Both the position numbers and the translations under genes were made by a program. Below, one piece after another: positions 1-18,794 of a DNA stretch of 18,794 nt. The notes beneath the pieces are model-generated. The model was not told the DNA's origin, ran no database searches, and was given only the letters and a program-made list of their open reading frames with translations. Source of the stretch: a virus. The stretch lies in the UHGV virus genome UHGV-0072536, one strand, 5' to 3'. Each line of letters opens with the position of its first letter. Positions within the stretch are counted from its first letter, which is position 1.

Positions 1-458
1 TGTACCGTGAAAGCGACATCGTACCGGGAGAGCAGACCGCCACCAGCATACTGAAACAGCGCACAAAAAATCTTACGCCGCTGCTTCACGCCCACCAGCA
101 ACAGAACCCACCACAGGAAAAGACGGTGGTCAGCATTGCCGTTGATCCTGAGTCTCCGGAATCTTTCATGAAACGACCTAAACGTCGCCGCTGGGTTAAC
201 GAGAAATACACACGCTGGGTGAAGACACAGCCGTGTGCGTGTTGTGGTAAGCCAGCCGACGATCCCCATCACCTGATTGGTCATGGTCAGGGCGGAATGG
301 GGACAAAATCTCACGATATTTTCACGCTACCGCTGTGTCGGGAGCATCACAACGAGCTTCATGCGGATCCGCTGGCGTTCGAAGAAAAGCATGGTTCTCA
401 GGTTGATTTAATTTTTCGTTTTCTTGATCACGCCTTTGCAACTGGCGTGCTTGGGTAA
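1..458 (+). CDS. DUF968-like phage protein, C-terminal part (5' end upstream of window); Cys/His-rich HNH-like motif
   Basis: Reading frame is open from nt 3 to the stop at 456-458; the track ORF 126..458 is its internal GTG-initiated part. Cys/His cluster (CACCG, HHLIGH, CREHH, ELH) and position directly upstream of rusA fit lambdoid nin-region DUF968 proteins. Family name is from memory. Confidence 0.5.
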   Translation, partial: YRESDIVPGEQTATSILKQRTKNLTPLLHAHQQQNPPQEKTVVSIAVDPESPESFMKRPKRRRWVNEKYTRWVKTQPCACCGKPADDPHHLIGHGQGGMGTKSHDIFTLPLCREHHNELHADPLAFEEKHGSQVDLIFRFLDHAFATGVLG

Positions 459-470
459 AAGAGGTGACTG

Positions 471-827
471 ATGCTCATAGATTTGGTTTTACCTTACCCG
501 CCGACGGTGAACACTTACTGGCGACGCCGTGGCAGCACATATTTTATCTCGGAGGAGGGAAAGCGTTATCGCCGGGCTGTGGCGCTTATTGTTCGCCAGC
601 AGCAGCTGAAATTAAGCCTGTCCGGAAGGCTGGCGATAAAGGTGATTGCAGAGCCACCGGATAAGCGTCGTCGCGACCTGGACAATATCCTGAAAGCACC
701 GCTGGATGCGCTGACGCATGCGGGAGTGTTAATGGACGATGAGCAGTTTGATGAAATCAATATCGTTCGTGGTCAGCCAGTATCTGGTGGACGTCTGGGG
801 GTGAAGATTTACCCCATAATGCATTAA
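471..827 (+). CDS. rusA: Holliday junction resolvase RusA
   Basis: 118-aa ORF with SD aagagg upstream. Translation aligns over its length with E. coli RusA (LPxPP..N.Y.., RRRDLDN, GGRL motifs). Confidence 0.9.
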   Translation: MLIDLVLPYPPTVNTYWRRRGSTYFISEEGKRYRRAVALIVRQQQLKLSLSGRLAIKVIAEPPDKRRRDLDNILKAPLDALTHAGVLMDDEQFDEINIVRGQPVSGGRLGVKIYPIMH

Positions 828-841
828 GAGCAGGTCAAAAA

Positions 842-1663
842 ATGAAACTGGAAGATTTACCGAAATACTACTCCCCAAAATCCCCCGGCCTGACTGATGC
901 ATCGGCCTCAACGTCGAAAGATGCGCTGAGTATCACTGATGTGATGGCCGCGCAGGGCATGACACAGAATCGGGCTGAGATGGGTTTTTCTGCGTTCCTG
1001 GGGAAAATGGGCATCAGTATGAATGACAGGGCGCGGGCAACAGAATTACTGGCAGATTATGCACTCAGTCGGTGCGATCGTGTGGCGGCGTTGAGAAAAC
1101 TTCCGGCAGAAATAAAACCGGTAGTGATGCGCATTATGGCTTCGTACGCTTTTGAGGATTATGCCCGCAGCGCAGCGAGTAAAAAGCAGTGCCCTTGTTG
1201 CTATGGGGAAAAATTTATTGAAAGCATAGTTTTTACAAACAAGGTCCAGTATCCGGATGGTAAGCCGCCGGTATGGGCAAAGTGTACGAAAGGTGTGTAT
1301 CCGTCTTACTGGGAAGAATGGAAAAAAGTCAGGGAGGTGGTAAAAGTTGCCTGTCCGGAGTGTGGCGGAAAGGGTGAGGTTTCCACCGCCTGTAAGGATT
1401 GCCGTGGGCGTGGTGTCGCCATTCATCGTGAAGAGTCGGTAAAACGTGGTATGCCTGTTATCAGAGACTGCCAGCGTTGTGGTGGTCGTGGCTATGAAAG
1501 ACTACCATCAACGGAGGTATTTAATGCTATATGCGAGGTGACAAACCAGATAACACGCGCGTCATGGGAAAAAACAGTTAAGAAATTCTATGATGCGCTG
1601 GTGACCCGGTTTGATATTGAAGAAGCATGGGCTGAGCGGCAGTTAAAAAAGGTAACTAGGTAA
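842..1663 (+). CDS. Q: Late gene antiterminator Q (lambda Q family, long variant)
   Basis: 273 aa. N-terminus resembles lambda Q (SPKSP, TDVMAA.GM), several CxxC zinc-binding pairs, C-terminal YDALV. Followed immediately by a pR'-like promoter and terminator. Confidence 0.85.
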   Translation: MKLEDLPKYYSPKSPGLTDASASTSKDALSITDVMAAQGMTQNRAEMGFSAFLGKMGISMNDRARATELLADYALSRCDRVAALRKLPAEIKPVVMRIMASYAFEDYARSAASKKQCPCCYGEKFIESIVFTNKVQYPDGKPPVWAKCTKGVYPSYWEEWKKVREVVKVACPECGGKGEVSTACKDCRGRGVAIHREESVKRGMPVIRDCQRCGGRGYERLPSTEVFNAICEVTNQITRASWEKTVKKFYDALVTRFDIEEAWAERQLKKVTR

Positions 1664-1668
1664 CAAGG

Positions 1669-1696
1669 TTGATTTTTCCGGAATCTGTGGTAAATT
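1669..1696 (+). promoter_or_regulatory. Late promoter pR'-like (-35 ttgatt, 16-bp spacer, TG-extended -10 taaatt), overlapping the expected qut region
   Basis: ttgatt at 1669-1674 and tggtaaatt at 1688-1696; the -10 and the downstream ataacgatggg closely resemble the lambda pR' region; sits directly after Q. Confidence 0.7.
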
Positions 1697-1744
1697 CGTC
1701 ATAACGATGGGCTTTTTATGCCTGACGTTAGAAGAGTTTCTACA

Positions 1745-1770
1745 ACCCGCCGCCGAGCGGGTTTTTTATT
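1745..1770 (+). terminator. tR'-like rho-independent terminator ending a short 6S-like leader RNA
   Basis: GC stem acccgc/gcgggt with 6-nt loop followed by ttttttatt, about 45-70 nt downstream of the predicted pR' start. Confidence 0.75.
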
Positions 1771-1806
1771 GCGGAATTAATTACGGACCGTTATTATTCT
1801 GCTCCC

Positions 1807-1882
1807 GGCCCTTTAGCTCAGTGGTGAGAGCGAGCGACTCATAATCGCCAGGTCGCTGGTTCAAATCCAGCAAGGGCCACCA
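1807..1882 (+). tRNA. tRNA with anticodon CAU (Met or lysidine-modified Ile2; ileZ-like phage tRNA)
   Basis: Hand-folded cloverleaf: 7-bp acceptor stem ggccctt/aagggcc, D-stem gctc/gagc, anticodon loop ctCATaa, T-arm gctgg-ttcaaat-ccagc, encoded CCA. Confidence 0.85.
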
Positions 1883-1889
1883 TCACATA

Positions 1890-1966
1890 CCGCCATTAGC
1901 TCATCAGGATAGAGCGCCAGCCTTCGAAGCTGGTTGCGCGGGGTTCGAGTCCTCGATGGCGGTCCA
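1890..1966 (+). tRNA. tRNA-Arg (anticodon UCG)
   Basis: Hand-folded cloverleaf: acceptor ccgccat/atggcgg, D-stem gctc/gagc, anticodon stem ccagc/gctgg with loop ctTCGaa, T-arm cgggg-ttcgagt-cctcg, encoded CCA. Confidence 0.8.
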
Positions 1967-1979
1967 TTATCTGTACCCT

Positions 1980-2056
1980 GCGTTGTTAGCTCAGCCGGAC
2001 AGAGCAATTGCCTTCTAAGCAATCGGTCACTGGTTCGAATCCAGTACAGCGCGCCA
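1980..2056 (+). tRNA. tRNA-Arg (anticodon UCU, reads rare AGA/AGG; argO/argU-like)
   Basis: Hand-folded cloverleaf: acceptor gcgttgt/acagcgc with one G-U pair, D-stem gctc/gagc, anticodon stem attgc/gcaat with loop ctTCTaa, T-arm actgg-ttcgaat-ccagt, encoded CCA. Confidence 0.85.
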
Positions 2057-2166
2057 TATTCATTCTTCCAGATTCCTTCCGGCAGAGCCTTATACTGAAA
2101 TATACCTGGCTCAGGATATTGTTGAAAATATTATATGTTTGTCAAAAATAAAAGTTCTGTTAAGTA

Positions 2167-2520
2167 TTGATTGAGTGTTTGTTATACGGTCTAATGGTTT
2201 TTTCAGCATTAAATATTTATCATTCATATGGTGTGGGTAGAGTGAATATTGATGAGGCGTCGGGGTGTTTCATCCTTAGGCAGCGTATTGATATAGTCAA
2301 TGCAGCACGAGCAAAGGCCTTCAGCCGTTTGACAGTTTTGTTTTGTACTCCTGATCGTCTTTCGGGAAGAGACGTTATTATTCTGAATAGTGATGCTATA
2401 CAAAGGGTTAGCGATGAGTTCATGGTTGCTAATTCAGAATTATTTGCTCTTGTTCAGGAGTACAACAGAATAGCCAGGACCTGTGGTATGGATGAACTTC
2501 GGATTACTCATCTGGGGTAG
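2167..2520 (+). CDS. Hypothetical protein in AT-rich cargo island (doubtful)
   Basis: 117-aa ORF starting at TTG with no convincing SD; low GC; no recognisable motifs. Confidence 0.2.
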   Translation: MIECLLYGLMVFSALNIYHSYGVGRVNIDEASGCFILRQRIDIVNAARAKAFSRLTVLFCTPDRLSGRDVIILNSDAIQRVSDEFMVANSELFALVQEYNRIARTCGMDELRITHLG

Positions 2521-2911
2521 ATACATATCTGGATTATCACCTGTTACGGTAAAAAGTGATTGCTTACTGTTTTTGTGAATGGCATTGCAGCAGCCGGATA
2601 ATGTCAGTGCTGGCTGACGGTGTGCTGGTGGCGGGTGTGGTGGTTGTTGCTTTCCCGTTGCTGAAAAAGAAAACGCCAGACTGTTAGCCGGGTATCAGTT
2701 AGCGGGAGAAATTTTTAAATACTTCACAATTCAGGCGGTTGACTGTTGTCTGGTTTGCGGGGAGTTTGTTAAAAGAAACTGGCATGGTGAATCCCCCTGT
2801 GCGGAGGGGCAATCAGCGAGTAGGTATATGGGATAATCGCGGATTCAGGTGCTGGTACTGAATTCACCGGGAGGCACCCGGCACCATGCAATGGCACATA
2901 GCGCCACTCTC

Positions 2912-2945
2912 CAGCCCCTCTCCGGAGGGGCTGTTTATATTGATT
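2912..2945 (+). terminator. Rho-independent terminator-like hairpin
   Basis: 8-bp GC-rich stem cagcccct/aggggctg with loop ctccgg, followed by T-rich tract tttatattgatttt. Confidence 0.55.
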
Positions 2946-2967
2946 TTGTCAGATGTGAGTAAACTCC

Positions 2968-3303
2968 TTATGGACTTTGTTGTTTTAGTCCATAAGGACA
3001 TATTTGCAGAGTGCAACGGTTATTAAAGCATTCATTCAATACGTTATCTGTATTTGTAGGGCATTCCTGGCTGTTTTTGATTAAATTCCAGAATGTTTTA
3101 TTGAATGGTACTACGTTGTAAATGGTTACAGGTAGCACTTTGTTATTGAGCATGATGCCTGTGTGAGTCAGTGTAAATATACTTTCAGGAGGTAAGAAAG
3201 CATCCGATTGATACCAGATTATTAATTTTATTTTACTCCATATGACTGAAAAAGATATTCCGCATGATGGCTGGATAACTGTATCAATCACAATCCACTT
3301 CAT
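2968..3303 (-). CDS. Hypothetical protein in AT-rich cargo island
   Basis: 111-aa ORF with ATG and a good SD (aaggaa, 5-nt spacing) on the minus strand; Cys-containing, no recognisable family; a perfect 10-bp inverted repeat overlaps its stop (2966-2998). Confidence 0.4.
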
Positions 3304-3548
3304 TTAGTTTCCTTGTTTATGCCTTGCTGGTGATGTTCTGAAAAGTATAAATGATATTTTTGAATGTAAACCATAGAGCAGAATTATTTTTCTGATGTTG
3401 TTTATTGTTTATTTAAATGCAGGGTGGTTTATATCTCGTCTTGTAGTTTATCCATGCATATCTGCTTGATAATCAGGTTTTTATTTAAGGTATGGTTTTG
3501 TGTTTTTTCTGTATTACATGTCAGGTATTTTAAAGAGTTATTTTTCAG

Positions 3549-3752
3549 ATGGTGGAAAGAACCATGGCATTTAAACACTATGATGTTGTCAGGGCGGCGC
3601 CGCCGTCAGATCTTGCGGAAAAGCTGACACATAAACTGAAAGAGGGCTGGCAGCCGTTTGGTAGTCCGGTGGCCATAACCCCTTATACCCTGATGCAGGC
3701 GATTGCAGCAGAAGGTGATGTGGTGGTCAGTGGTGCAACTGAGCCGGAGTGA
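3549..3752 (+). CDS. Small conserved phage protein often found upstream of lambdoid holins (possibly DUF1737-like)
   Basis: 67-aa ORF (alternative start at 3564, MAFKHYDVV); moderate GC; sits between cargo island and holin. Family name is from memory and unverified. Confidence 0.45.
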   Translation: MVERTMAFKHYDVVRAAPPSDLAEKLTHKLKEGWQPFGSPVAITPYTLMQAIAAEGDVVVSGATEPE

Positions 3753-3994
3753 TACTACGTCATCGTACTGGCCCGGCATTCCAGGCCATAAAGGACAGTC
3801 TGGCAGTGGGACTAAATGCACTGACGCTGACGGATATTACCAAAAATGCAACGTATGGCGTTGAGATAGAAAGTCTGGTGCTGGAGATAAATGCACCGGC
3901 ATCATCATAAAAAGTGAGCCAGTCAAATGGAAGGTATCGTTAAACTCACCGGTAGTGTCAGTGGATCGTCTGAGACGCTTGCATGAGTTATCAG

Positions 3995-4028
3995 AGCCAT
4001 CAGTAGTTAACTGGTGGCTTTTTTATTG
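3995..4028 (+). terminator. Rho-independent terminator-like hairpin upstream of holin
   Basis: 9-bp stem agccatcag/ctggtggct (one G-U), 7-nt loop, then ttttttatt; about 30 nt upstream of the holin SD. Confidence 0.55.
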
Positions 4029-4059
4029 TTGTCAGCTTCCGGATAACGGGAGACGGGGT

Positions 4060-4275
4060 ATGGACCAGATGGAAAAAATCACAACAGGTGTGTCATACAC
4101 CACGTCAGCGGTGGGAACGGGCTACTGGTTCCTGCAGTTGCTGGACAGGGTTTCCCCGTCTCAGTGGGCGGCAATAGGCGTGCTGGGGAGTCTGCTGTTT
4201 GGGCTGCTGACATATCTGACTAACCTGTATTTCAAAATCAGAGAGGACCGTCGTAAGGCGGCACGGGGAGAGTAA
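4060..4275 (+). CDS. S: Class II holin / pinholin, phage 21 S-type, with dual-start motif
   Basis: 71 aa beginning MDQMEK; SD gggag upstream. Near-identical over most of its length to S21 pinholin ([21 protein letters not shown]...[22 protein letters not shown]). The track ORF 3955..4275 is an upstream in-frame extension. Confidence 0.9.
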
Positions 4276-4279
4276 TTCA

Positions 4280-4594
4280 ATGACTCAAAACTATGAACTG
4301 ATTGTGAAAGGGATCCGCAATTTTGAGAATAAAGTTACGGTAACTTTAGCGTTACGGGACAAAAAACGCTTTGACGGTGAAATTTTTGACCTGGACATCT
4401 CGCTGGACCGTGTTGAAGGTGCCGCGCTGGAGTTTTATGAGGCAGCAGCCAGAAGGAGCATCAGACAGGTCTTCCTGGATGTTGCTGCCGGGTTATGTGA
4501 AGGGGACGAGCTGTTGCCAGAAACGCGCCCCTGTTCAGAGGCGCGGTATACCATAAAAATTAACAGTTCTGATAACTCGATTACAGGTTGTTAG
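4280..4594 (+). CDS. Hypothetical protein inserted between holin and endolysin
   Basis: 104-aa ORF with ATG 4 nt after the holin stop, SD ggggagag inside the holin 3' end (translational coupling); acidic, no transmembrane segment, no recognisable family. Confidence 0.6.
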   Translation: MTQNYELIVKGIRNFENKVTVTLALRDKKRFDGEIFDLDISLDRVEGAALEFYEAAARRSIRQVFLDVAAGLCEGDELLPETRPCSEARYTIKINSSDNSITGC

Positions 4595-4649
4595 CTTTTT
4601 GCAGTTGGCTTTCCAGTATCTTTCATTGGTAGCATCCTGATAAATATCC

Positions 4650-5183
4650 ATGAGCGCAAAAATCAAATACGGCCTGTCAGCTGCTGTTCTGGCGCTGATT
4701 GCTGCAGGCGCGTCTGCTCCTCAAATACTTGACCAGTTTCTGGATGAAAAAGAGGGTAACCACACTACGGCATACCGCGATGGTTCCGGTATATGGACCA
4801 TCTGTCGTGGTGCCACAATGGTGGATGGTAAGCCCGTCATACCGGGAATGAAGCTGTCGAAGGAAAAATGCGACCAGGTTAACGCTATTGAACGTGATAA
4901 GGCGCTGGCATGGGTGGAGCGCAATATTAAAGTACCACTGACCGAACCACAGAAAGCGGGTATAGCGTCATTCTGTCCCTATAACATTGGCCCCGGTAAG
5001 TGTTTCCCGTCGACGTTTTATAAGCGGCTGAATGCCGGTGATCGTAAGGGCGCATGCGAGGCGATTCGCTGGTGGATAAAAGATGGTGGGCGCGATTGCC
5101 GCATACGTTCAAATAACTGCTATGGACAGGTTATTCGTCGTGACCAGGAAAGCGCATTAGCCTGTTGGGGGATAGATCAGTGA
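4650..5183 (+). CDS. R: SAR endolysin (phage 21 R-type lysozyme, T4-lysozyme/GH24 fold)
   Basis: 177 aa; N-terminal weakly hydrophobic Gly/Ala-rich signal-anchor-release segment ([15 protein letters not shown]), then E...D...T catalytic region ([23 protein letters not shown]); conserved position after a pinholin. Confidence 0.85.
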
Positions 5184-5647
5184 GCAGAGTCGCAGCGATT
5201 ATTTATACTCTGGTTATCTGCACCATCGTCTGCCTGTCATGGGCTGTTAATCATTACCGCGATAACGCCATTACCTACAAAGCCCAGCGCGACAAAAATG
5301 TCAGAGAACTGAAGCTGGCGAACGCGGCAATTACTGACATGCAGATGCGTCAGCGTGATGTTGCTGCGCTCGATGCAAAATACACGAAGGAGTTAGCTGA
5401 TGCGAAAGCTGAAAATGATGCTCTTCTGCGGAAGCTTGATAATGGTGGCAGGGTGCTCGTCAAAGGAAAATGCCCTGTGCCATCCTCAGCCGAAACCTCC
5501 AGCGCCTCCGGCATGGGCAATGATGCCACCGTCGAACTCTCTCCAGTTGCTGGACGAAACGTTCTCGATATCCGGGACGGAATTATCCGCGACCAAACAG
5601 CACTGAGAACGCTTCAGGAATACATTAGGACGCAATGCCTTCGATGA
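5180..5647 (+). CDS. Rz: i-spanin Rz
   Basis: GTG start overlaps the endolysin stop (gtga, 5180-5183); TTG at 5165 is an alternative. N-terminal transmembrane segment then coiled-coil region; aligns with lambda Rz ([20 protein letters not shown]..., [32 protein letters not shown]). Confidence 0.85.
5400..5606 (+). CDS. Rz1: o-spanin Rz1 (outer-membrane lipoprotein) nested in the +1 frame of Rz
   Basis: 68 aa; signal peptide with lipobox (LIMVAGC), proline-rich mature part ([11 protein letters not shown]); entirely inside Rz in another frame, as in lambda. Confidence 0.8.
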
Positions 5648-5822
5648 TAGCGATAATTTTACTCATCATCCTTCACATCTGGCTCTGTAGACAGGGTGGT
5701 GATCACTTCTGGAGTAAATCCAGATTAAACATCTCATTGCTGATGCTTGATATTGAGCATCTGGCGCGCAGTAAGGGGCTGCGTTGAGATAAGAGCCAGT
5801 TCATTACAAATACCAGGATTTA

Positions 5823-5846
5823 GCCTCGCATTCGCGGGGCTTTTTA
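5823..5846 (+). terminator. Rho-independent terminator-like hairpin downstream of the lysis cassette
   Basis: 7-bp stem gcctcgc/gcggggc (one G-U), 4-nt loop, then ttttt. Confidence 0.5.
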
Positions 5847-5989
5847 TATCTGAATTTCACAGCGCATCTCACGCGCATATTAACGAGAGCCTTTCAGTAA
5901 GCGAGCCTGAGAAATGCCGTTATAGGTGGCGACCTCTCTCGGGCGGCTTTTCTGTGAGACAGGCTCACTTTCTAAAAGGTAAAGACGCT

Positions 5990-6514
5990 ATGAATAATCA
6001 TTCAGTTATTCCAGCCTTCGACTTCCGAGAAATGGTGCAAGCCAAAAACGGAGAGGTCGTTACCACATCCAGAAAAATTGCCAAGTACTTCGGCAAGCGA
6101 CACGGTGATGTTCTCAGGAAAATCGAGCAGGTTAAGGCTGATTGCTCGCGTGAGTTTAGCCAACGCAATTTTGCGTCGGCTGATTATATCGATGAGCAGG
6201 GCAAGGTTCGACCGATGTACAGCCTGACGAAAGATGGCTGGATCATGGTTGTGATGGGGTTCACCGGGAAAGCTGCTGCGGCAATCAAGGAGAGCTATAT
6301 CGCAGCATTCAACTGGATGGCAGAGCAACTGAGCCGCCGCATGGCAATTGGCGAAGAAATGCAGCACCGCTACGCCATCAAAGAAACACGCTCAAAGCTG
6401 AAAGGTACGATCGGCGGTCGGTTAATGAACGAACGGAAGAAAGAGAAGCGTGTCCTGGCTGTCGAGCATGAATACATCTTGCAGGTGACACAGCCTGAAC
6501 TGCTGATTAATTGA
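5990..6514 (+). CDS. rha: Rha-family phage regulatory protein (antirepressor-like)
   Basis: 174 aa from ATG at 5990 (SD aaagg upstream); N-terminal Rha signature EVVTTSRKIAKYFGKRHGDVLRKIE. The track ORF from 5747 is an upstream in-frame extension spanning a terminator. Confidence 0.7.
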   Translation: MNNHSVIPAFDFREMVQAKNGEVVTTSRKIAKYFGKRHGDVLRKIEQVKADCSREFSQRNFASADYIDEQGKVRPMYSLTKDGWIMVVMGFTGKAAAAIKESYIAAFNWMAEQLSRRMAIGEEMQHRYAIKETRSKLKGTIGGRLMNERKKEKRVLAVEHEYILQVTQPELLIN

Positions 6515-6817
6515 AGATGTCATTACAAAGCCTATCTACGGGGGGGCTTGATAATGGCTTATACCCTGCACGGGATAACTTAACTGATATCCCTTTTAAC
6601 GGATAAAGGTATTCAAGCCTGACACATCATGCGCTGTATCGTCGCCGTATTCCCGCATTAACCATGACCGTAGCCCGACGGGGAATTCCTTCTGCGTGAG
6701 TGTGCGGGAATAATCAAAAACGATGCACACCGGGTTATTAACGCGTCAACTGAACGCGGGGTTGCTCTTCATGTCAGCCAGTCCGGTGCAGGGGTAGAAG
6801 AAACCGGACGTTATGGT

Positions 6818-7228
6818 TTAGTGTGGAAACATTTGTGATGTGCTCTGTATGTTTTCAGTAAAGAGTAATGAATTATCAAAGGTATAGTAATATCTTTTTT
6901 GTTCGTGGATATTTGTAACCCACCGAAAAACTCCTGCTTTAGCAAGGTTTCTTCTGTATTCCTGAAATGTGATCTCTCTGGATTTCAGCTTATTAGAGGT
7001 CGTTTCTATAAGATGCCTATCCTTTGAAAATTTGACAGACACAATGTTTTTTAGGCCCTTTAATAACACTGTATTATCATTTTTTAATACAATATGAACA
7101 TTCTCTGTGGCTAAATAGTAAATGTAATGTGAGACATTGTGACGTTTTAGCTCAGAATAAAACCATTGATAGTTTAAATCGTTTCGAACTTTATCAAATA
7201 TTTGTTTAAAAATGACTACCTGATCCAT
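6818..7228 (-). CDS. Conserved lambda right-end ORF homolog (possibly DUF1398-like)
   Basis: 136 aa from [11 protein letters not shown]; AT-rich; strongly similar to the minus-strand ORF near the right end of phage lambda as recalled. Family name is from memory. Confidence 0.65.
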
Positions 7229-7285
7229 AGATAAACCTTCCATGTGATATGAGGGGGCGTAGTCTGCACGATTATCTAAATTGCT

Positions 7286-7519
7286 TCAATCTGGTCTGAC
7301 CTGTTTTCTGAGCAATTCAGTAATGTCACTCTTTTCTTTGTTTGCTTCAGAAGAAACTCTTTTTTCTGAGCACAGTCTCCGGCGGCAGGCTTCAATGACC
7401 CAGGCTGAGAAATTCCCGGACCCTTTTTGCTCAAGAGCGATGTTAATTTGTTCAATCATTTGGTTAGGAAAGCGGATGTTGCGGGTTGTTGTTCTGCGGG
7501 TTCTGTTCTTCGTTGACAT
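7286..7519 (-). CDS. Small ribbon-helix-helix-like protein, lambda right-end ORF homolog (possibly DUF3950/YlcI-like)
   Basis: 77 aa; N-terminal basic stretch then NIRFPNQMIEQINIALEQKGSGNFSAWVIEACRRRL, typical of RHH DNA-binding proteins; matches the last minus-strand ORF before cos in lambda; the overlapping plus-strand ORF 7281..7547 is judged spurious. Confidence 0.65.
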   Translation of the reverse strand: MSTKNRTRRTTTRNIRFPNQMIEQINIALEQKGSGNFSAWVIEACRRRLCSEKRVSSEANKEKSDITELLRKQVRPD

Positions 7520-7718
7520 GAGGTTGCCCCGTATTCAGTGTCGCTGATTTGTATTGTCTGAAGTTGTTTTTACGTTAAGTTGATGCAGATCAATTAATAC
7601 GATACCTGCGTCATAATTGATTATTTGACGTGGTTTGATGGCCTCCACGCACGTTGTGATATGTAGATGATAATCATTATCACTTTACGGGTCCTTTCCG
7701 GTGATCCGACAGGTTACG

Positions 7719-7730
7719 GGGCGGCGACCT
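7719..7730 (+). other. cosN: 12-nt cohesive-end site gggcggcgacct (terminase nicking site)
   Basis: Identical to the lambda 12-nt cohesive end; preceded by the lambda right-end sequence ...gatccgacaggttacg and followed by lambda left-end sequence. Confidence 0.9.
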
Positions 7731-7770
7731 CGCGGGTTTTCGCTATTTATGAAAATTTTCCGGTTTAAGG

Positions 7771-7882
7771 TGTTTCCGTTCTTCTTCGTCGTAACTTAAT
7801 GTTTTTATTTAAAATACCCCCTGAAAAGAAAGGAAACGACAGGTGCTGAAAGCGAGCTTTTTGGCCTCTGTCGTTTCCTTTC
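7771..7882 (+). promoter_or_regulatory. cosB: Nu1-binding R elements (R3, R2, R1) between cosN and nu1
   Basis: R3-like gtttccgttcttcttcg (7772-7788); R2 gaaaggaaacgacag (7828-7842) and R1 ctgtcgtttcctttc (7868-7882) form an inverted pair as in lambda cosB. Confidence 0.8.
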
Positions 7883-7907
7883 TCTGTTTTTGTCCGTGGA
7901 ATGAGCA

Positions 7908-8427
7908 ATGGAAGTCAACAAAAAGCAGCTGGCTGACATTTTCGGTGCGAGTATCCGTACCATTCAGAACTGGCAGGAACAGGGAATGCCCGTTCTGCGA
8001 GGCGGTGGCAAGGGTAATGAGGTGCTTTATGACTCTGCCGCCGTTATAAAATGGTATGCCGAAAGGGATGCTGAAATTGAGAACGAAAAGCTGCGCCGGG
8101 AGGTTGAAGAACTGCGGCAGGCCAGCGAGGCAGATCTCCAGCCAGGGACTATTGAGTACGAACGCCATCGACTTACGCGTGCGCAGGCCGACGCACAGGA
8201 ACTGAAGAATGCCAGAGACTCCGCTGAAGTGGTGGAAACCGCATTCTGTACTTTCGTGTTGTCGCGGATCGCAGGTGAAATTGCCAGTATTCTCGACGGG
8301 ATTCCCCTGTCGGTGCAGCGGCGTTTTCCGGAACTGGAAAACCGACATGTTGATTTCCTGAAACGGGATATCATCAAAGCCATGAACAAAGCAGCCGCGC
8401 TGGATGAACTGATACCGGGGTTGCTGA

Positions 8428-8453
<26 letters not shown>
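7908..8453 (+). CDS. nu1: Terminase small subunit Nu1
   Basis: 181 aa; N-terminal winged-HTH (QLADIFGASIRTIQNWQEQGMP); near-identical to lambda gpNu1 as recalled. Confidence 0.95.
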
Positions 8454-12134
<3,681 letters not shown>

Positions 12135-12154
<20 letters not shown>

Positions 12155-13454
12155 TCTCCCGCATATTGCCAGCATGGCCTTTAATGAGCCGCTGATGCTT
12201 GAACCCGCCTATGCGCGGGTTTTCTTTTGTGCGCTTGCAGGCCAGCTTGGGATCAGCCGCCTGACGGATGCAGTATCCGGCGACAGCCTGACTGCCGGAG
12301 AGGCACCCGCGGCGCTGGCGTTATCCGGTGATGATGACGGACCACGACAGGCCCGCAGTTATCAGGTCATGAACGGCATCGCCGTGCTGCCGGTGTCCGG
12401 TACGCTGGTCAGCCGGACGCGGGCGCTGCAGCCGTATTCGGGAATGACCGGTTACAACGGCATTATCGCCCGTCTGCAACAGGCTGCCAGCGATCCGATG
12501 GTGGACGGCATTCTGCTGGATATGGACACACCGGGCGGGATGGTGGCGGGAGCATTTGACTGTGCTGACATCATCGCCCGTGTGCGAGACATAAAACCGG
12601 TATGGGCGCTGGCCAACGACATGAACTGCAGTGCAGGTCAGCTGCTTGCCAGCGCCGCCTCCCGGCGTCTGGTCACGCAGACCGCCCGGACAGGCTCCAT
12701 CGGCGTCATGATGGCTCACAGTAATTACGGTGCTGCGCTGGAGAAACAGGGCGTGGAAATCACGCTGATTTACAGCGGCAGCCATAAGGTGGATGGCAAC
12801 CCCTACAGCCATCTACCGGATGATGTCCGGGAAACACTGCAGTCCCGGATGGATGCAACCCGCCGGATGTTTGCACAGAAGGTGTCGGCATATACCGGCC
12901 TGTCCGTGCAGGCTGTGCTGGATACCGAGGCTGCAGTGTACAGCGGTCAGGAGGCCATTGATGCCGGACTGGCTGATGAACTTGTGAACAGTACCGATGC
13001 GATCACCGTCATGCGTGATGCACTGGATGCACGTAAATCCCGTCTCTCAGGAGGGCGAATGACCAAAGAGACTCAATCAACAACTGTTTCAGCCACTGCT
13101 TCGCAGGCTGACGTTACTGGCGTGGTGCAAGCGACGGAGGGCGAGAACGCCAGCGCTGCGCAGCCGGACGTGAACGCGCAGATCACCGCAGCGGTTGCGG
13201 CAGAAAACAGCCGCATTATTGGGATCCTCAACTGTGAGGAGGCTCACGGACGCGAAGAACAGGCACGCGTGCTGGCAGAAACCCCCGGTATGACCGTGGA
13301 AACGGCCCGCCGCATTCTGGCCGCAGCACCACAGAGTGCACAGGCGCGCAGTGACACTGCGCTGGATCGTCTGATGCAGGGGGCACCGGCACCGCTGGCT
13401 GCAGGTAACCCGGCATCTGATGCCGTTAACGATTTGCTGAACACACCAGTGTAA
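12135..13454 (+). CDS. C: Head maturation protease / scaffold C
   Basis: 439 aa from GTG at 12135 with SD agaggaggag; the track ORF 12000..13454 is an upstream extension; matches lambda gpC (VTAELRNLPHIASMAFNEPLML...). Confidence 0.9.
12849..13454 (+). CDS. nu3: Scaffolding protein Nu3, in-frame internal start within C
   Basis: ATG at 12849 in the C frame (MDATRRMFAQ...), sharing the C stop, as for lambda nu3; 201 aa. Confidence 0.75.
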   Translation: MDATRRMFAQKVSAYTGLSVQAVLDTEAAVYSGQEAIDAGLADELVNSTDAITVMRDALDARKSRLSGGRMTKETQSTTVSATASQADVTGVVQATEGENASAAQPDVNAQITAAVAAENSRIIGILNCEEAHGREEQARVLAETPGMTVETARRILAAAPQSAQARSDTALDRLMQGAPAPLAAGNPASDAVNDLLNTPV

Positions 13455-13463
13455 GGGATGTTT

Positions 13464-13796
13464 ATGACGAGCAAAGAAACCTTTACCCATTACCAGCCGC
13501 TGGGCAACAGTGACCCGGCTCATACCGCAACCGCGCCCGGCGGATTGAGTGCGAAAGCGCCTGCAATGACCCCGCTGATGCTGGACACCTCCAGCCGTAA
13601 GCTGGTTGCGTGGGATGGCACCACCGACGGTGCTGCCGTTGGCATTCTTGCGGTTGCTGCTGACCAGACCAGCACCACGCTGACGTTCTACAAGTCCGGC
13701 ACGTTCCGTTATGAGGATGTGCTCTGGCCGGAGGCTGCCAGCGACGAGACGAAAAAACGGACCGCGTTTGCCGGAACGGCAATCAGCATCGTTTAA
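13464..13796 (+). CDS. D: Head decoration protein D
   Basis: 110 aa from [12 protein letters not shown]; near-identical to lambda gpD. Confidence 0.95.
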
Positions 13797-13816
13797 CATT
13801 ACCCTTCATCACTAAA

Positions 13817-13838
13817 GGCCGCCTGTGCGGCTTTTTTA
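13817..13838 (+). terminator. GC hairpin plus T-tract between D and E (terminator/attenuator-like)
   Basis: Stem gccgc/gcggc with loop ctgt, followed by tttttt, 13 nt before the E start. Confidence 0.4.
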
Positions 13839-13850
13839 CGGGATTTTTTT

Positions 13851-14876
13851 ATGTCGATGTACACAACCGCCCAGCTGCTGGCGGCAAATGAGCAGAAATT
13901 TAAGTTTGATCCGCTGTTTCTGCGTCTCTTTTTCCGTGAGAGCTATCCCTTCACTACGGAGAAAGTCTATCTCTCACAAATTCCGGGACTGGTAAACATG
14001 GCGCTGTACGTTTCGCCGATTGTTTCCGGTGAGGTTATCCGTTCCCGTGGCGGCTCCACCTCTGAATTTACGCCGGGATATGTCAAACCCAAGCATGAAG
14101 TGAATCCGCAGATGACCCTGCGTCGCCTGCCGGATGAAGATCCGCAGAATCTGGCGGACCCGGCTTACCGCCGCCGTCGCATCATCATGCAGAACATGCG
14201 TGACGAAGAGCTGGCCATTGCTCAGGTCGAAGAGATGCAGGCAGTTTCTGCCGTGCTCAAGGGCAAATACACCATGATCGGTGAAGCCTTCGATCCGGTT
14301 GAGGTGGATATGGGCCGCAGTGCGGCGAACAACATCACGCAGTCCGGCGGCACGGAGTGGAGCAAGCGTGACAAGTCCACGTATGACCCGACCGACGATA
14401 TCGAAGCCTACGCGCTGAACGCCAGCGGCGTGGTGAATATCATCGTGTTTGACCCGAAAGGCTGGGCGCTGTTCCGTTCCTTCAAAGCCGTCAGGGAGAA
14501 GCTGGATACCCGTCGCGGCTCTCATTCCGAACTGGAGACAGCGGTAAAAGACCTGGGCAAAGCGGTGTCCTATAAGGGGATGTATGGCGATGTGGCCATC
14601 GTCGTGTATTCCGGACAGTACGTGGAAAACGGCGTCAAAAAGAACTTCCTGCCGGACAACACGATGGTGCTGGGTAACACTCATGCACGCGGTCTGCGCA
14701 CCTATGGCTGTATTCAGGATGCGGATGCATTGAGTGAGGGTATTAATGCGTCTCCCCGTTATCCGAAAAACTGGAAGACATCCGGCGATCCGGCGCGAGA
14801 GTTCACCATGATTCAGTCAGCACCGCTGATGCTGCTGGCTGATCCTGATGAGTTCGTGTCCGTTCAACTGGCGTAA
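13851..14876 (+). CDS. E: Major capsid protein E
   Basis: 341 aa starting MSMYTTAQLLAANEQKFKFDPLFLR; near-identical to lambda gpE. Confidence 0.95.
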   Translation: MSMYTTAQLLAANEQKFKFDPLFLRLFFRESYPFTTEKVYLSQIPGLVNMALYVSPIVSGEVIRSRGGSTSEFTPGYVKPKHEVNPQMTLRRLPDEDPQNLADPAYRRRRIIMQNMRDEELAIAQVEEMQAVSAVLKGKYTMIGEAFDPVEVDMGRSAANNITQSGGTEWSKRDKSTYDPTDDIEAYALNASGVVNIIVFDPKGWALFRSFKAVREKLDTRRGSHSELETAVKDLGKAVSYKGMYGDVAIVVYSGQYVENGVKKNFLPDNTMVLGNTHARGLRTYGCIQDADALSEGINASPRYPKNWKTSGDPAREFTMIQSAPLMLLADPDEFVSVQLA

Positions 14877-14917
14877 TCATGGCCCTTAGGGGCCATTTTC
14901 TCTCTGTGGAGGAGTCC

Positions 14918-15313
14918 ATGACGAAAGATGAACTGATTGCCCGTCTCCGGTCGCTGGGTGAGCAACTGAACCGTGATGTCAGCCTGACGGGGACGAAAGA
15001 AGAACTGGCGCTCCGTGTGGCAGAGCTGGAAGAGGAGCTTGATGACACGGATGACGGAGCCGGTCAGGACTCGTCTGTCAGCCCGGAAAATGCGCTGACC
15101 GGACATGAAAATGAGGTGGTATCAGCACAGACGGATACCGTGACTGATACGGCTGCTCTGGTCACGGTTGTGGCACTGGTGACGCTGCATACCGATGCAC
15201 TTCACGCCACGCGGGATGAACCTGTGGCATTTGTGCTGCCGGGAACGGCGTTTCGTGTCTCTGCCGGTGTGGCAGCCGAAATGACAGAGCGCGGCCTGGC
15301 CAGAATGCAATAA
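14918..15313 (+). CDS. FI: DNA-packaging protein FI
   Basis: 131 aa from MTKDELIARLRSLGEQ with SD ggagg; conserved N- and C-terminal parts match lambda gpFI, central linker divergent; a perfect palindrome atggccctta/ggggccat lies between E and FI. Confidence 0.9.
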   Translation: MTKDELIARLRSLGEQLNRDVSLTGTKEELALRVAELEEELDDTDDGAGQDSSVSPENALTGHENEVVSAQTDTVTDTAALVTVVALVTLHTDALHATRDEPVAFVLPGTAFRVSAGVAAEMTERGLARMQ

Positions 15314-15324
15314 CGGGAGGCGCT

Positions 15325-15678
15325 GTGGCTGATTTCGATAACCTGTTCGATGCTGCCATTGTCCGCGCCGATGAAACGATACGCGGGTACATGGGAACGT
15401 CAGCCACCATGACATCCGGTGAGCAGTCCGGCGCAGTAATACGTGGTGTTTTTGATGACCCTGAAAATATCAGCTATGCCGGACAGGGCGTGCGCGTTGA
15501 AGGCTCCAGCCCGTCCCTGTTTGTCCGGACTGATGATGTGCGGCAGCTGCGGCGTGGAGACACGCTGACCATCGGTGAGGAAAACTTCTGGATAGACCGG
15601 GTTTCGCCGGATGATGGTGGAAGCTGTCATCTCTGGCTTGGGCGGGGCGTACCGCCTGCCGTTAACCGTCGCCGCTGA
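15325..15678 (+). CDS. FII: Head-tail joining protein FII
   Basis: 117 aa, GTG start; matches lambda gpFII. Confidence 0.9.
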   Translation: MADFDNLFDAAIVRADETIRGYMGTSATMTSGEQSGAVIRGVFDDPENISYAGQGVRVEGSSPSLFVRTDDVRQLRRGDTLTIGEENFWIDRVSPDDGGSCHLWLGRGVPPAVNRRR

Positions 15679-15690
15679 AAGGGGGGATGT

Positions 15691-16269
15691 ATGGCCATAA
15701 AAGGTCTTGAGCAGGCCATTGAAAACCTCAGCCGTATCAGCAAAACGGCGGTGCCTGGTGCCGCCGCAATGGCCATTAACCGCGTTGCTTCATCCGCGAT
15801 ATCGCAGTCTGCGTCACAGGTTGCCCGTGAGACAAAGGTACGCCGGAAACTGGTAAAGGAAAGGGCCAGGCTGAAAAGGGCCACGGTCAAAAATCCGCAG
15901 GCCAGAATCAAAGTTAACCGGGGGGATTTGCCCGTAATCAGGCTGGGTAACGCGCGGGTTGTCCTGTCCCGCCGCAGGCGTCGTAAAAAGGGGCAGCGTT
16001 CATCCCTGAAAGGTGGCGGCAGCGTGCTTGTGGTGGGAAACCGTCGTATTCCCGGCGCGTTTATTCAGCAACTGAAAAATGGCCGGTGGCATGTCATGCA
16101 GCGTGTGGCCGGGAAAAACCGTTACCCCATTGATGTGGTGAAAATCCCGATGGCGGTGCCGCTGACCACGGCGTTTAAACAGAATATTGAGCGGATACGG
16201 CGTGAGCGTCTTCCGAAAGAGCTGGGCTATGCGCTGCAGCATCAACTGAGGATGGTAATAAAGCGATGA
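15691..16269 (+). CDS. Z: Tail completion protein Z
   Basis: 192 aa; matches lambda gpZ. Confidence 0.9.
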   Translation: MAIKGLEQAIENLSRISKTAVPGAAAMAINRVASSAISQSASQVARETKVRRKLVKERARLKRATVKNPQARIKVNRGDLPVIRLGNARVVLSRRRRRKKGQRSSLKGGGSVLVVGNRRIPGAFIQQLKNGRWHVMQRVAGKNRYPIDVVKIPMAVPLTTAFKQNIERIRRERLPKELGYALQHQLRMVIKR

Positions 16270-16661
16270 AACATACTGAACTCCGTGCAGCCGTACTGGA
16301 TGCACTGGAGAAGCATGACACCGGGGCGACGTTTTTTGATGGTCGCCCCGCTGTTTTTGATGAGGCGGATTTTCCGGCAGTTGCCGTTTATCTCACCGGC
16401 GCTGAATACACGGGCGAAGAGCTGGACAGCGATACCTGGCAGGCGGAGCTGCATATCGAAGTTTTCCTGCCTGCTCAGGTGCCGGATTCAGAGCTGGATG
16501 CGTGGATGGAGTCCCGGATTTATCCGGTGATGAGCGATATCCCGGCACTGTCAGATTTGATCACCAGTATGGTGGCCAGTGGCTATGACTACCGGCGCGA
16601 CGATGATGCGGGCCTGTGGAGTTCAGCCGATCTGACGTATGTCATTACCTATGAAATGTGA
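16266..16661 (+). CDS. U: Tail terminator protein U
   Basis: 131 aa; start overlaps the Z stop; matches lambda gpU. Confidence 0.9.
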
Positions 16662-16668
16662 GGACGAT

Positions 16669-17409
16669 ATGCCTGTACCAAATCCAGCAATACCGGTGAA
16701 AGGTGCCGGAACCACCCTGTGGGTTTATAACGGGAGCGGCGACCCTTATGCGAACCCGCTTTCAGACGTTGACTGGTCGCGCCTGGCTAAAGTTAAAGAC
16801 CTGACGCCCGGCGAACTGACCGCTGAGTCCTATGACGACAGTTATCTCGATGATGAAGATGCGGACTGGACCGCGACCGGGCAGGGACAGAAATCCGCCG
16901 GAGATACCAGCTTCACGCTGGCGTGGATGCCCGGAGAGCAGGGGCAGCAGGCGCTGCTGGCGTGGTTTAATGAAGGTGATACCCGTGCCTATAAAATCCG
17001 CTTCCCGAACGGCACGGTCGATGTGTTCCGTGGCTGGGTGAGCAGTATCGGTAAGGCGGTGACGGCGAAGGACGTGATCACCCGTACGGTGAAGGTCACC
17101 AATGTGGGCCGTCCGTCAATGGCAGAAGATCGCAGTACGGTGACGGCGGCAACCGGTATGACTGTGACGCCTGCCAGCTCCTCGGTGGTGAAAGGGCAGA
17201 GCACCACGCTGACCGTGGCATTCCAGCCGGAGGGCGCAACTGACAAGAGCTTCCGTGCGGTGTCAGCGGATAAAACAAAAGCCACCGTGTCGGTCAGTGG
17301 TATGACCATCACCGTGAACGGCGTTGCTGCAGGCAAGGTCAACATTCCGGTTGTATCCGGTAATGGTGAGTTTGCTGCGGTTGCAGAAATTACCGTCACC
17401 GCCAGTTAA
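16669..17409 (+). CDS. V: Major tail tube protein V (with C-terminal Ig-like domain)
   Basis: 246 aa from [20 protein letters not shown]; track ORF 16639..17409 is an upstream extension; matches lambda gpV. Confidence 0.95.
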
Positions 17410-17424
17410 TCCGGAGAGTCAGCG

Positions 17425-17847
17425 ATGTTCCTGAAAACCGAATCATTTGAACATAACGGTGTGACCGTCACGCTTTCTGAACTGTCAGCCCTGCAGCGCA
17501 TTGAGCATCTCGCCCTGATGAAACGGCAGGCAGAACAGGCGGAGTCAGACAGCAACCGGAAGTTTACTGTGGAAGACGCCATCAGAACCGGCGCGTTTCT
17601 GGTGGCGATGTCCCTGTGGCATAACCATCCGCAGAAGACGCAGATGCCGTCCATGAATGAAGCCGTTAAACAGATTGAGCAGGAAGTGCTTACCACCTGG
17701 CCCACGGAGGCAATTTCTCATGCTGAAAACGTGGTGTACCGGCTGTCCGGTATGTATGAGTTTGTGGTGAATAATGCCCCTGAACAGACAGAGGACGCCG
17801 GGCCCGCAGAGCCTGTTTCTGCGGGAAAGTGTTCGACGGTGAGCTGA
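17425..17847 (+). CDS. G: Tail assembly chaperone G
   Basis: 140 aa; matches lambda gpG; contains slippery heptamer gggaaag (17823-17829) near its 3' end. Confidence 0.9.
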   Translation: MFLKTESFEHNGVTVTLSELSALQRIEHLALMKRQAEQAESDSNRKFTVEDAIRTGAFLVAMSLWHNHPQKTQMPSMNEAVKQIEQEVLTTWPTEAISHAENVVYRLSGMYEFVVNNAPEQTEDAGPAEPVSAGKCSTVS

Positions 17848-18140
17848 GTTTTGCCCTGAAACTGGCGCGTGAGATGGGGCGACCCGACTGGCGTGCCATG
17901 CTTGCCGGGATGTCATCCACGGAGTATGTCGACTGGCACCGCTTTTACAGTACCCATTATTTTCATGATGTTCTGCTGGATATGCACTTTTCCGGGCTGA
18001 CGTACACCGTGCTTAGCCTGTTTGATGCGCCGCGCGATAAATGCACTCTATCTTGTGCGATAAATGGCATCCACGCGGCGTTTCATTATTTGAAAAAGAA
18101 TTACATTTCAGGTTGCGTTATGACAGTCCCAACAGGGTGA
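17823..18140 (+). pseudogene. T: T part of the G-T -1 frameshift product, truncated: lambda-like only to about 18025, then unrelated sequence to a stop
   Basis: -1 frame after gggaaag reads GKVFDGELSFALKLAREMGRPDWRAMLAGMSSTEYVDWHRFYSTHYFHDVLLDMHFSGLTYTVLSLF (lambda gpT-like), then diverges (DAPRDKCTLSC...) and stops at 18140; no H gene follows. Confidence 0.7.
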
Positions 18141-18673
18141 TAGCGGTAGATCGTTGACAGTCCAATATCATAGATAATTGCCAGCCGCTTTCTGTCATAC
18201 CCTTTCTGGAGCAATCTTGCGATCTGCTCATGCTGCTCCTTCGTCAGTTTCGGGCGACGTCCTCCAACTCTTCCTTGTGCTCGCGCAGCAGCCAGTCCTG
18301 CCAGCGTGCGCTCAACTATCAGTTCACGCTCCATTTCTGCCAGTGCACCCATCATATGAAAAAAGAACCTTCCCATCGGAGTGCTGGTATCGATTGAATC
18401 CGTCAGACTGCGAAAATTGACACCTTTTGCGCGTAGCTCTTCTGTGAGAGCAATGAGGTGTTTCATTCTTCTACCCAACCGATCCAGCTTCCAGACCACC
18501 AATGTATCCCCTCTTTTAAGGCACTTTAAAGCGCGTTTCAGGCCTGGTCGTTCCGACTTGGTTCCGCTCATTTTGTCCTCAAAAATCTGTTCACATCCTG
18601 CGCACATTAATGCATTGCGTTGCAAATCTGTGTTTTGGTCATTTGTTGACACACGTATGTAGCCAATCAGCAT
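18101..18673 (-). CDS. pin: Serine DNA invertase, Pin/Gin/Hin/Cin family
   Basis: 190 aa from MLIGYIRVSTNDQNTDLQRNAL (catalytic Ser in RVST); strongly similar along its length to E. coli e14 Pin as recalled; the track ORF start at 18787 is an upstream extension. Confidence 0.9.
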   Translation of the reverse strand: MLIGYIRVSTNDQNTDLQRNALMCAGCEQIFEDKMSGTKSERPGLKRALKCLKRGDTLVVWKLDRLGRRMKHLIALTEELRAKGVNFRSLTDSIDTSTPMGRFFFHMMGALAEMERELIVERTLAGLAAARAQGRVGGRRPKLTKEQHEQIARLLQKGYDRKRLAIIYDIGLSTIYRYHPVGTVITQPEM

Positions 18674-18727
18674 TAAAAATACTCCCTTTTGAGTGGTTAA
18701 AGTACTGAGATAATGTGGGGAGGATTT

Positions 18728-18753
18728 GAGAGATAAACGTTGGTTTGGGGGAA
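18728..18753 (-). repeat. Candidate gix/pix-like crossover site upstream of pin
   Basis: Minus-strand sequence ttcccccaaaccaacgtttatctctc resembles the 26-bp crossover sites of Gin/Hin/Cin/Pin invertases (TTCC..AAACC....TTT); lies 55-80 bp upstream of the pin start codon. Confidence 0.45.
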
Positions 18754-18794
18754 GGCTCTGCACTGCCTGTTGGTGTGCCTGTTCCATGGCCCAC

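Follow-up and report, generated by a model that had tools for sequence, protein, structure and literature searches.

The 18,794-nt window analysed here, the whole stretch from UHGV virus genome UHGV-0072536, is best explained by the insertion of a BcepMu-like transposable phage of ~37–38 kb into gene T of a resident lambda-like prophage, and we assign this reading, including the far junction that lies beyond the window, a probability of about 0.89.

The resident prophage can be followed without interruption up to the break. By local BLAST, lambda positions 1–10309 (NC_001416) correspond to window positions 7719–18023 as one colinear block with 97.75% identity, which begins at cos and ends within T (10115–10549 in lambda), and 5' of cos the lambda likeness is confined to patches in the Q/lysis region. 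With this single block, the lambda gene order and near-identical proteins previously described from cos through G are confirmed. The block starts with the following feature.

7719–7730, plus strand: cos, GGGCGGCGACCT (exact), start of the lambda-colinear block 7719–18022

The end of the similarity is as abrupt as the initial annotation had described, but its position, placed there at about 18025, is 18022/18023 in the lambda alignment, and base 18023 is common to both sources by chance. Megablast of 17400–18794 parts cleanly at the same point, with 17400–18023 matching lambda and its relatives and 18023–18794 matching E. coli chromosomal places. All lambda-type morphogenesis ORFs in the window are full-length, and the 10.3 kb upstream of the break carries no other damage; with the insertion as the sole visible lesion, the event appears to be recent.

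The break falls inside T, just after the programmed frameshift region, and four features describe the G-T segment.

17425–17847, plus strand: gene G, tail assembly chaperone, intact, 140 aa (ORF list, lambda G annotation)
17823–17829, plus strand: G-T −1 frameshift heptamer GGGAAAG (read directly; position as in lambda)
17829–18022, plus strand: 5' remnant of T, codons 1–64 plus two bases (translation compared with lambda T)
17829–18140, plus strand: chimeric ORF T', 103 aa, with 65 T residues followed by 38 from the terminal DNA of the insert

As in lambda, the G ORF ends in the heptamer and T lies in the −1 frame, and PF06894 (Phage_TAC_2) was matched on the identical G gene in isolate contig L005. 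Codon 65 of the T remnant is completed by the first T of the insert, and residues 1–65 of the frame are those of lambda T except for one A→V change. After residue 65 the frame reads DAPRDKCTLSCAINGIHAAFHYLKKNYISGCVMTVPTG, 38 codons in all, and stops at 18138–18140. Comparison with lambda T thus bears out several earlier observations, namely the intact slippery site with the first 65 or so T codons, the interruption after codon 65 (65 of the 144 codons are kept) and the 38 unrelated codons before a stop. The T domain is incomplete, since Phage_tail_T (PF06223) is matched over positions 1–36 only of the 73 in the profile. The T' ORF is a junction artefact. In NCBI records it carries the name "phage tail assembly protein T".

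The first base after the break, 18023, opens the terminal 5'-TG of a mobile element; the end of that element and its predicted target duplication are as follows.

18017–18022, unstranded: CCTGTT, predicted left copy of a 6-bp target-site duplication, from the five of five measured insertions below
18023–18794, unstranded: terminal 772 bp (tail-fibre/invertase end) of the BcepMu-like transposable prophage, beginning 5'-TGATGCGCC

In complete E. coli genomes, DNA 99–100% identical to 18023–18794 forms the element ends beside codA, ybhJ, irp2, folM, yqhA, ybaP, malE, yehR and other genes. The 88-bp tip is present in 597 of 5,426 such genomes, at 655 places with different neighbour genes (at most three per genome, 14 places on plasmids), and the element is thus widespread among E. 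coli. In the five insertions that we measured, the element is 37.2–38.4 kb long, starts with TGATGCGCC and ends with TGATCA (TAATCA in one), and in all five a different 6-bp duplication abuts TGATG.../...TGATCA.

L003, site codA/codB: duplication CGGGTA
L008, site ybhJ: duplication GTGATT
L009, site irp2: duplication CCCTTT
L010, site folM: duplication CCCTCT
L133/L134, site P2-type lysB/lysC: duplication ATTATT

A gene is split at four of these five sites; the element at codA/codB lies at the extreme 5' end of codA, a gene still given as complete in the annotation. Different sites, each with its own 6-bp duplication, are a signature of transposition as opposed to site-specific integration or illegitimate recombination. 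A Mu-like duplication of 5 bp had been assumed first and was ruled out by the 6 bp found in every measured case. In the window one flank of the element is visible. With the break at the terminal TG of an element that sits elsewhere between 6-bp duplications, the earlier proposal that the tail module breaks off through deletion or heavy rearrangement is not supported.

The initial annotation had also placed a short direct repeat right at the junction. The repeat gcgataaatg does exist, but both copies lie six bases to the right of the positions first given (18028 and 18051).

18034–18043, plus strand: subterminal repeat 1, GCGATAAATG, nt 12–21 from the tip, predicted transposase-binding site
18057–18066, plus strand: subterminal repeat 2, GCGATAAATG, nt 35–44 from the tip, 23 bp after repeat 1

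The end in the window can be written as TGATGCGCCGCGCGATAAATG...GCGATAAATG (in full, TGATGCGCCGCGCGATAAATGCACTCTATCTTGTGCGATAAATG), and the other end of the element, taken from sibling copies, as TGATCAGACATGAGATAAATG...GAGATAAAT (in full, TGATCAGACATGAGATAAATGAAGGGGGATCCGTGAGATAAAT). Together with the right end of BcepMu (TGAAGCGCGGCGCGATATTTCAGCACGTCGACGCGCGATAAAT), both share a TG tip followed by two repeats of the GMGATAWWT type at nt 12–20 and 35–43, and in all three ends copies of GMGATAAAT occupy these two positions; at the BcepMu left end, related GMGATATTT copies (GAGATATTT and GCGATATTT) stand at the same offsets. The termini of the element are therefore 5'-TG...CA-3', and each carries a pair of subterminal repeats, inverted with respect to those of the other end. 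Against an expectation of 0.35, the window contains three GMGATAAAT sites, the two junction copies among them. From their position and conservation, the two repeats are predicted to be transposase-binding sites. The repeat noted at the junction belongs to the element as its paired subterminal repeat and is not a recombination scar.

These data also bear on illegitimate recombination or deletion, in which a truncated tail module would have been fused to invertase DNA at a point marked by the direct repeat. Such an event would account for the sudden stop of lambda similarity and for a 10-nt repeat at most 45 bp from the break. However, the break lies exactly where a mobile element begins, in the five measured insertions this same terminus adjoins five different flanks, and the repeat is wholly inside the element, beginning 11 nt from its tip, with the same offsets at the other end and at the BcepMu right end. 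Since neither copy lies in lambda-type DNA, the repeat cannot have mediated a crossover from lambda to foreign sequence, and we regard this origin of the junction as very improbable.

Another possibility is a misassembly in which two prophages from the same genome or community were joined at a short shared sequence. The window resembles a metagenome-derived viral contig and ends in a repeat-rich region, as such an error might lead one to expect, but the join itself argues strongly against it. The exact chimeric T' protein forms a cluster of its own and occurs on 49 contigs from independently assembled NCBI isolate genomes, the longest of 71.9 kb. In one of them, WXMA01000027.1 (59.9 kb, GCA_009892545.1), Nu1 to G precede the junction and tail genes of the element follow it for at least 10 kb; in isolate contig L005, P2-like baseplate and tail genes lie past the junction, and a near-identical junction is present in one IMG/VR metagenome contig. 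Moreover, only one base is shared at the join, too little for a misjoin, and the join is structured exactly like a transposition junction. With T' on 49 isolate contigs, the long continuation in WXMA01000027.1 and the single shared base, an assembly chimera is extremely unlikely.

The nature of the inserted element was examined in sibling copies, in which the transposase (in L003), the ATPase and the other end were studied. The transposase (589 aa; Pfam rve, E=1e-8, above the cut-off) is a DDE enzyme related to BcepMu gp09 and Tn552, and its identity is 98.6% to that of phage PhiKM, 68% over 98% of the length to that of BcepMu and ~57% to those of Pseudomonas B3-like phages. The adjacent ATPase (AAA_22, E=4e-20) is annotated as ExeA family, and this AAA+ (ExeA/MuB-like) protein is accompanied in the sibling copies by the further early genes Gam and Mor (E=1e-43), a BcepMu_gp16-family protein (E=3e-28) and a gp16/GemA-like protein. 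A holin, a transglycosylase, Mu-type head genes (DUF935 portal and virion morphogenesis), P2-type sheath, tube and baseplate genes, and tail fibres with an invertase are also encoded. The genes from Mor to B-A run in one direction, and the repressor, lysis, Mu-like head and P2-like tail genes run in the opposite one. TG...CA termini and a Tn552-related rve transposase are hallmarks of BcepMu-type phages (PMC2628397). As far as can be judged from sequence, the element can be classified as a BcepMu-like transposable phage, for which all the defining features that could be tested were found, mostly on sibling copies, and the inserted phage may still be active.

The part of the element that lies in the window carries three features.

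18101–18673, minus strand: 190-aa serine DNA invertase, Gin/Pin type, belonging to the inserted phage (domains Resolvase, E=8e-51, and HTH_7)
18730–18755, unstranded: candidate gix-like crossover site, start of the invertible tail-fibre region (inverted-repeat start)
18745–18794, plus strand: opening 50 nt of an ORF for a tail-fibre C-terminal cassette, continuing beyond the window

The foreign character of the downstream DNA and its oppositely oriented invertase, both pointed out by the initial annotation, hold. With a Resolvase domain and a C-terminal HTH_7, the 190-aa recombinase belongs to the Gin/Pin/Cin/Hin small serine recombinases, and its best solved relative is a DNA-invertase (entries 4m6f/3uj3, E=2e-93, residues 1–181), which we take to be Mu Gin; 18730–18755 resembles the gix site of Mu and may be its counterpart. 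In L005, inverted repeats of 208–522 nt start at 10907–10909, equivalent to window positions 18735–18737, and an invertible segment made of these repeats and several Collar-domain cassettes adjoins the invertase; the window holds its first ~60 nt. Equivalents of the cassette ORF are annotated as 'phage tail protein' in L001 and as a Collar-domain ORF in L005, and alternative arrangements of the tail-fibre region are found among different genomes. The invertase is the inserted phage's own Gin-like tail-fibre/host-range switch and is unrelated to the lambda-type module. In L005, window segment 18295–18794 recurs inverted, 100% identical and ~3 kb further on, and the tail-fibre region has an extra inverted copy of the 5' half of the invertase; this region of L005 looks rearranged, or the assembly has a problem there. 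The same repeat-rich region limits what the window can reveal. A sibling short-read metagenome contig, IMGVR_UViG_3300029084_000006, differs from the window at 3 positions in 5,549 nt, so that the window is not exactly its 3' end, and it stops 17 nt past the last base of the window. As the sibling stops in this region and the window itself ends only 772 bp into an insert of ~38 kb, nothing follows from the lack of genes H to J in the window, nor is the rearrangement once deduced from it supported.

The state of the site before insertion is preserved in a close relative. The prophage of strain SCU-105, 99.1% identical to window 1–18023, shares with it the rare A→V allele of T; its T gene is uninterrupted, with H, M, L, K, I, J, lom and tail-fibre genes behind it. 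A nested precedent with both junctions visible is found in AR_0085 (NZ_CP029741), in which the same element (37,595 bp) lies in lysB/lysC of a P2-family prophage between copies of ATTATT, and P2 gene order resumes directly beyond the other end of the element. In WXMA01000027.1 the contig runs ~41.8 kb past the junction, 3.4–4.6 kb beyond the element length of 37.2–38.4 kb. The length of this contig, the five clean precedents and the intact SCU-105 relative together favour a simple insertion with H to J ~38 kb downstream. The far junction would then read ...CATGTCTGATCA CCTGTT TTTCAGCGATCC..., also written as ...TGATCA CCTGTT TTTCAGCG... and ...CATTTATCTCATGTCTGATCA CCTGTT TTTCAGCGATCCGGATATGCA..., and would be followed by the rest of T and by H onward.

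Several searches were made for this junction. The predicted 705-nt sequence gave no match spanning both halves in the complete E. coli genomes; exact and degenerate patterns were not found in the metagenome contigs, viral contigs or GTDB representative genomes; and the lambda-T/element junction of the window itself is absent from all complete genomes searched. An 85-aa far-side fusion ORF, calculated for a 6-bp duplication, is absent from the protein collection with either T allele, for which the use of an internal ATG by the gene caller may be responsible, and a homology search with the T C-terminus returned no far-side fusion. T fragments of 74 aa with an internal start occur on 107 and 23 contigs, and they are not diagnostic of the far junction because gene callers may also make them in intact prophages. 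P0019, followed as a lead to the far-side junction ORF, was discarded as it pointed only to a frameshift-ridden assembly.

Since the transposase, ATPase and other end were seen in sibling copies only, it is possible that an adjacent deletion occurred or that the element is truncated here. More broadly, insertion into T may have been followed or accompanied by a transposition-associated deletion or inversion that removed or displaced the distal tail genes. Adjacent deletions and inversions are known products of replicative Mu-type transposition, the far junction was not found in any collection searched, and the extra inverted invertase half in L005 would also suit such an event. We nevertheless consider it unlikely, because the isolate contig that continues ~41.8 kb past the junction fits a resumption of T'-H-M, all five resolved insertions are simple with intact duplications, one of them inside another prophage, and the 10.3 kb of upstream lambda-type genes is otherwise undamaged.

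For the simple insertion, the following course can be proposed. The Tn552/BcepMu-type rve transposase, together with the adjacent AAA+ MuB-like ATPase, would bind the paired repeats GCGATAAAT at nt 12–20 and 35–43, and the terminal 5'-TG...CA-3' ends would be joined to target DNA through a 6-bp staggered cut between 18022 and 18023, with repair duplicating CCTGTT. The rest of T and H to J would be expected ~38 kb further on, beyond the Mor-side end. The consequences for the lambda-like prophage would be severe. gpGT requires its T domain for tail assembly, and the G-T frameshift product would have a truncated one; in addition, the late operon would be split by 38 kb of DNA that mostly points the opposite way, and the cos-to-cos length of ~85 kb would exceed the packaging limit of the lambda head. 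With the truncated T domain, the split operon and the ~85-kb genome, no infectious lambda-type particles are expected. The initial suspicion that this prophage is defective is therefore very probably correct, since only half of the T domain is left, but the cause would be insertional inactivation and not the loss of genes. Since precise excision of Mu-type prophages does not reach useful rates, the lesion would be effectively permanent, and its occurrence throughout a clone of isolates agrees with this.

From a practical point of view, the region should be annotated as a nested prophage pair and not as what is left of a decaying lambda prophage that has lost its tail genes. For BcepMu-like phages of E. 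coli, the exact termini, the paired repeats and the 6-bp duplication (five of five) also provide landmarks by which insertions can be found automatically. The nested cases seen amount to two, in lambda-type T and in P2-type lysB/lysC. One may ask whether such events are non-random, in that BcepMu-like phages prefer late or tail genes of resident prophages or that the disabled prophage has been selected in the clone. The second version would draw on the 49 contigs and on the idea that the insertion locks in prophage cargo and removes the risk of lysis. We think either version improbable; if one were true, it would mean phage-phage conflict or prophage domestication by way of a transposable phage.

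Among known systems, one of the closest to the element is BcepMu of Burkholderia (Bcepmuvirus; NC_005882), likewise a transposable myovirus with a Tn552-type rve transposase (68% identity) and an ExeA-like AAA+ ATPase. In BcepMu the same early genes (Mor, GemA, B and A) are transcribed away from the late genes, the head is Mu-like and the tail P2-like, and the termini are TG...CA with repeats at nt 12–20/35–43 (GCGATATTT/GCGATAAAT at the right end, GAGATATTT/GCGATATTT at the left). In contrast to BcepMu, the host of the element is E. coli, its accessory genes differ, and a Gin-like invertase with a multi-cassette invertible tail-fibre segment stands where BcepMu has an acyltransferase; relative to BcepMu, the element has gained a Gin-type invertase system. 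With Escherichia phage PhiKM (PQ738613), the comparison was made by the transposase, which is 98.6% identical. In the literature we found no stated duplication length for BcepMu and nothing usable on PhiKM. The prophages of the 597 of 5,426 complete genomes agree with the element in gene content, random sites and the 6-bp duplication, and their terminus and invertase are 99–100% identical to its own; only the insertion site differs, being T of a lambda-like prophage here. The nested insertion in AR_0085 is a further parallel, with the same element in the late genes of another prophage; there the host prophage and the target gene are different, and both junctions are visible, whereas the window shows one.

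The element also shares much with Mu, which is likewise temperate and transposes by a DDE mechanism to near-random sites, has TG...CA ends, multiple transposase-binding repeats, Gam and Mor, and uses the Gin invertase, to whose presumed entries (4m6f/3uj3) the window's invertase is close, to flip its tail-fibre C-termini. However, the transposase of the element is of the BcepMu/Tn552 type and not MuA, its early genes are inverted with respect to the late ones, its measured duplication is 6 bp whereas that of Mu is 5 bp, and Mu is absent among the best 25 of 124 megablast matches. Mu insertions in lambda genes belong to classical genetics, and the landing of a Mu-type phage in another prophage, as described here, is an event of a known kind and textbook biology.

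Copies of the BcepMu-like transposable element were also found outside gene T. In E. coli AR_0085 (NZ_CP029741, 4184356-4221950), the element lies within lysB/lysC of a prophage of the P2 family, where it measures 37,595 bp and has the duplication ATTATT, and this host prophage carries a separate invertase system of its own. The terminus of the element is present in 2 or 3 copies in some genomes, for example NZ_CP116948 (strain CUVET21-PYO5), and 14 of the 655 places at which it was located in complete E. coli genomes are on plasmids. Such multiple termini per genome, together with the plasmid locations, fit ongoing transposition or repeated infection. The invertase-side terminus was identical in four element copies, and a one-base difference was detected in the fifth (AR_0085). 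The Mor-side terminus differs among copies, reading TGATTAGACTTGAGATAAATG in the copy at irp2 (L009, 38038-38058) and TGATCAGACATGAGATAAATG in that at codA/codB (L003, 38911-38931), and one of the Mor-side variants has only one perfect GAGATAAAT repeat.

In the isolate contig with the same T/element junction (L005, WXMA01000027.1), the 5' half of the invertase gene and its upstream region recur some 3 kb away from the full-length gene, in inverted orientation and with 100% identity:

L005 10467-11134 and 13435-14102, inverted relative to each other: repeat of the invertase 5' half (window equivalent, 18295 onward)

No tail-fibre constant-region ORF was called in L005 at 13.6-15.4 kb. The extra invertase copy arose either through aberrant inversion by the multi-cassette switch or as an artefact of short-read assembly.

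In the protein collection, we also observed three proteins (P0012, P0013 and P0014) in which the N-terminus of a head or tail protein, apparently of lambda type, is joined straight to T at ...(D)MHPLDF. One N-terminus is FI (by Pfam hit and source name), one is Z (by Pfam hit), and there is a third; P0012 is present on 22 contigs. The breakpoint that these fusions share falls at an ATGCAT (NsiI-like) sequence, which points to deletions, either engineered or recurrent, in some prophages derived from lambda.

Within the window, the likeness to lambda is confined to the genes for head and tail. From the Q antiterminator through the lysis genes, the sequence belongs to another lambdoid type, with patchy lambda matches of 81-98%:

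1-7718: DUF968, RusA, 273-aa Q, IraM, class II holin, rrrQ-type lysozyme, Rha, YdfO and YnfO
842-1663: Q-type antiterminator
1807-2056: three tRNA genes, directly downstream of Q

ARAGORN assigned the tRNAs as Met(CAT), Arg(TCG) and Arg(TCT), whereas the first is tRNA-Ile according to RefSeq in the 99%-identical prophage of strain SCU-105. The alignment with the SCU-105 prophage covers window 1-18023 except for one stretch, 4532-4633, where about 100 nt stand in place of about 420 nt that include a small minus-strand hypothetical gene in SCU-105, and the C-terminus of the YdfR-family ORF (4280-4594) is altered relative to SCU-105.
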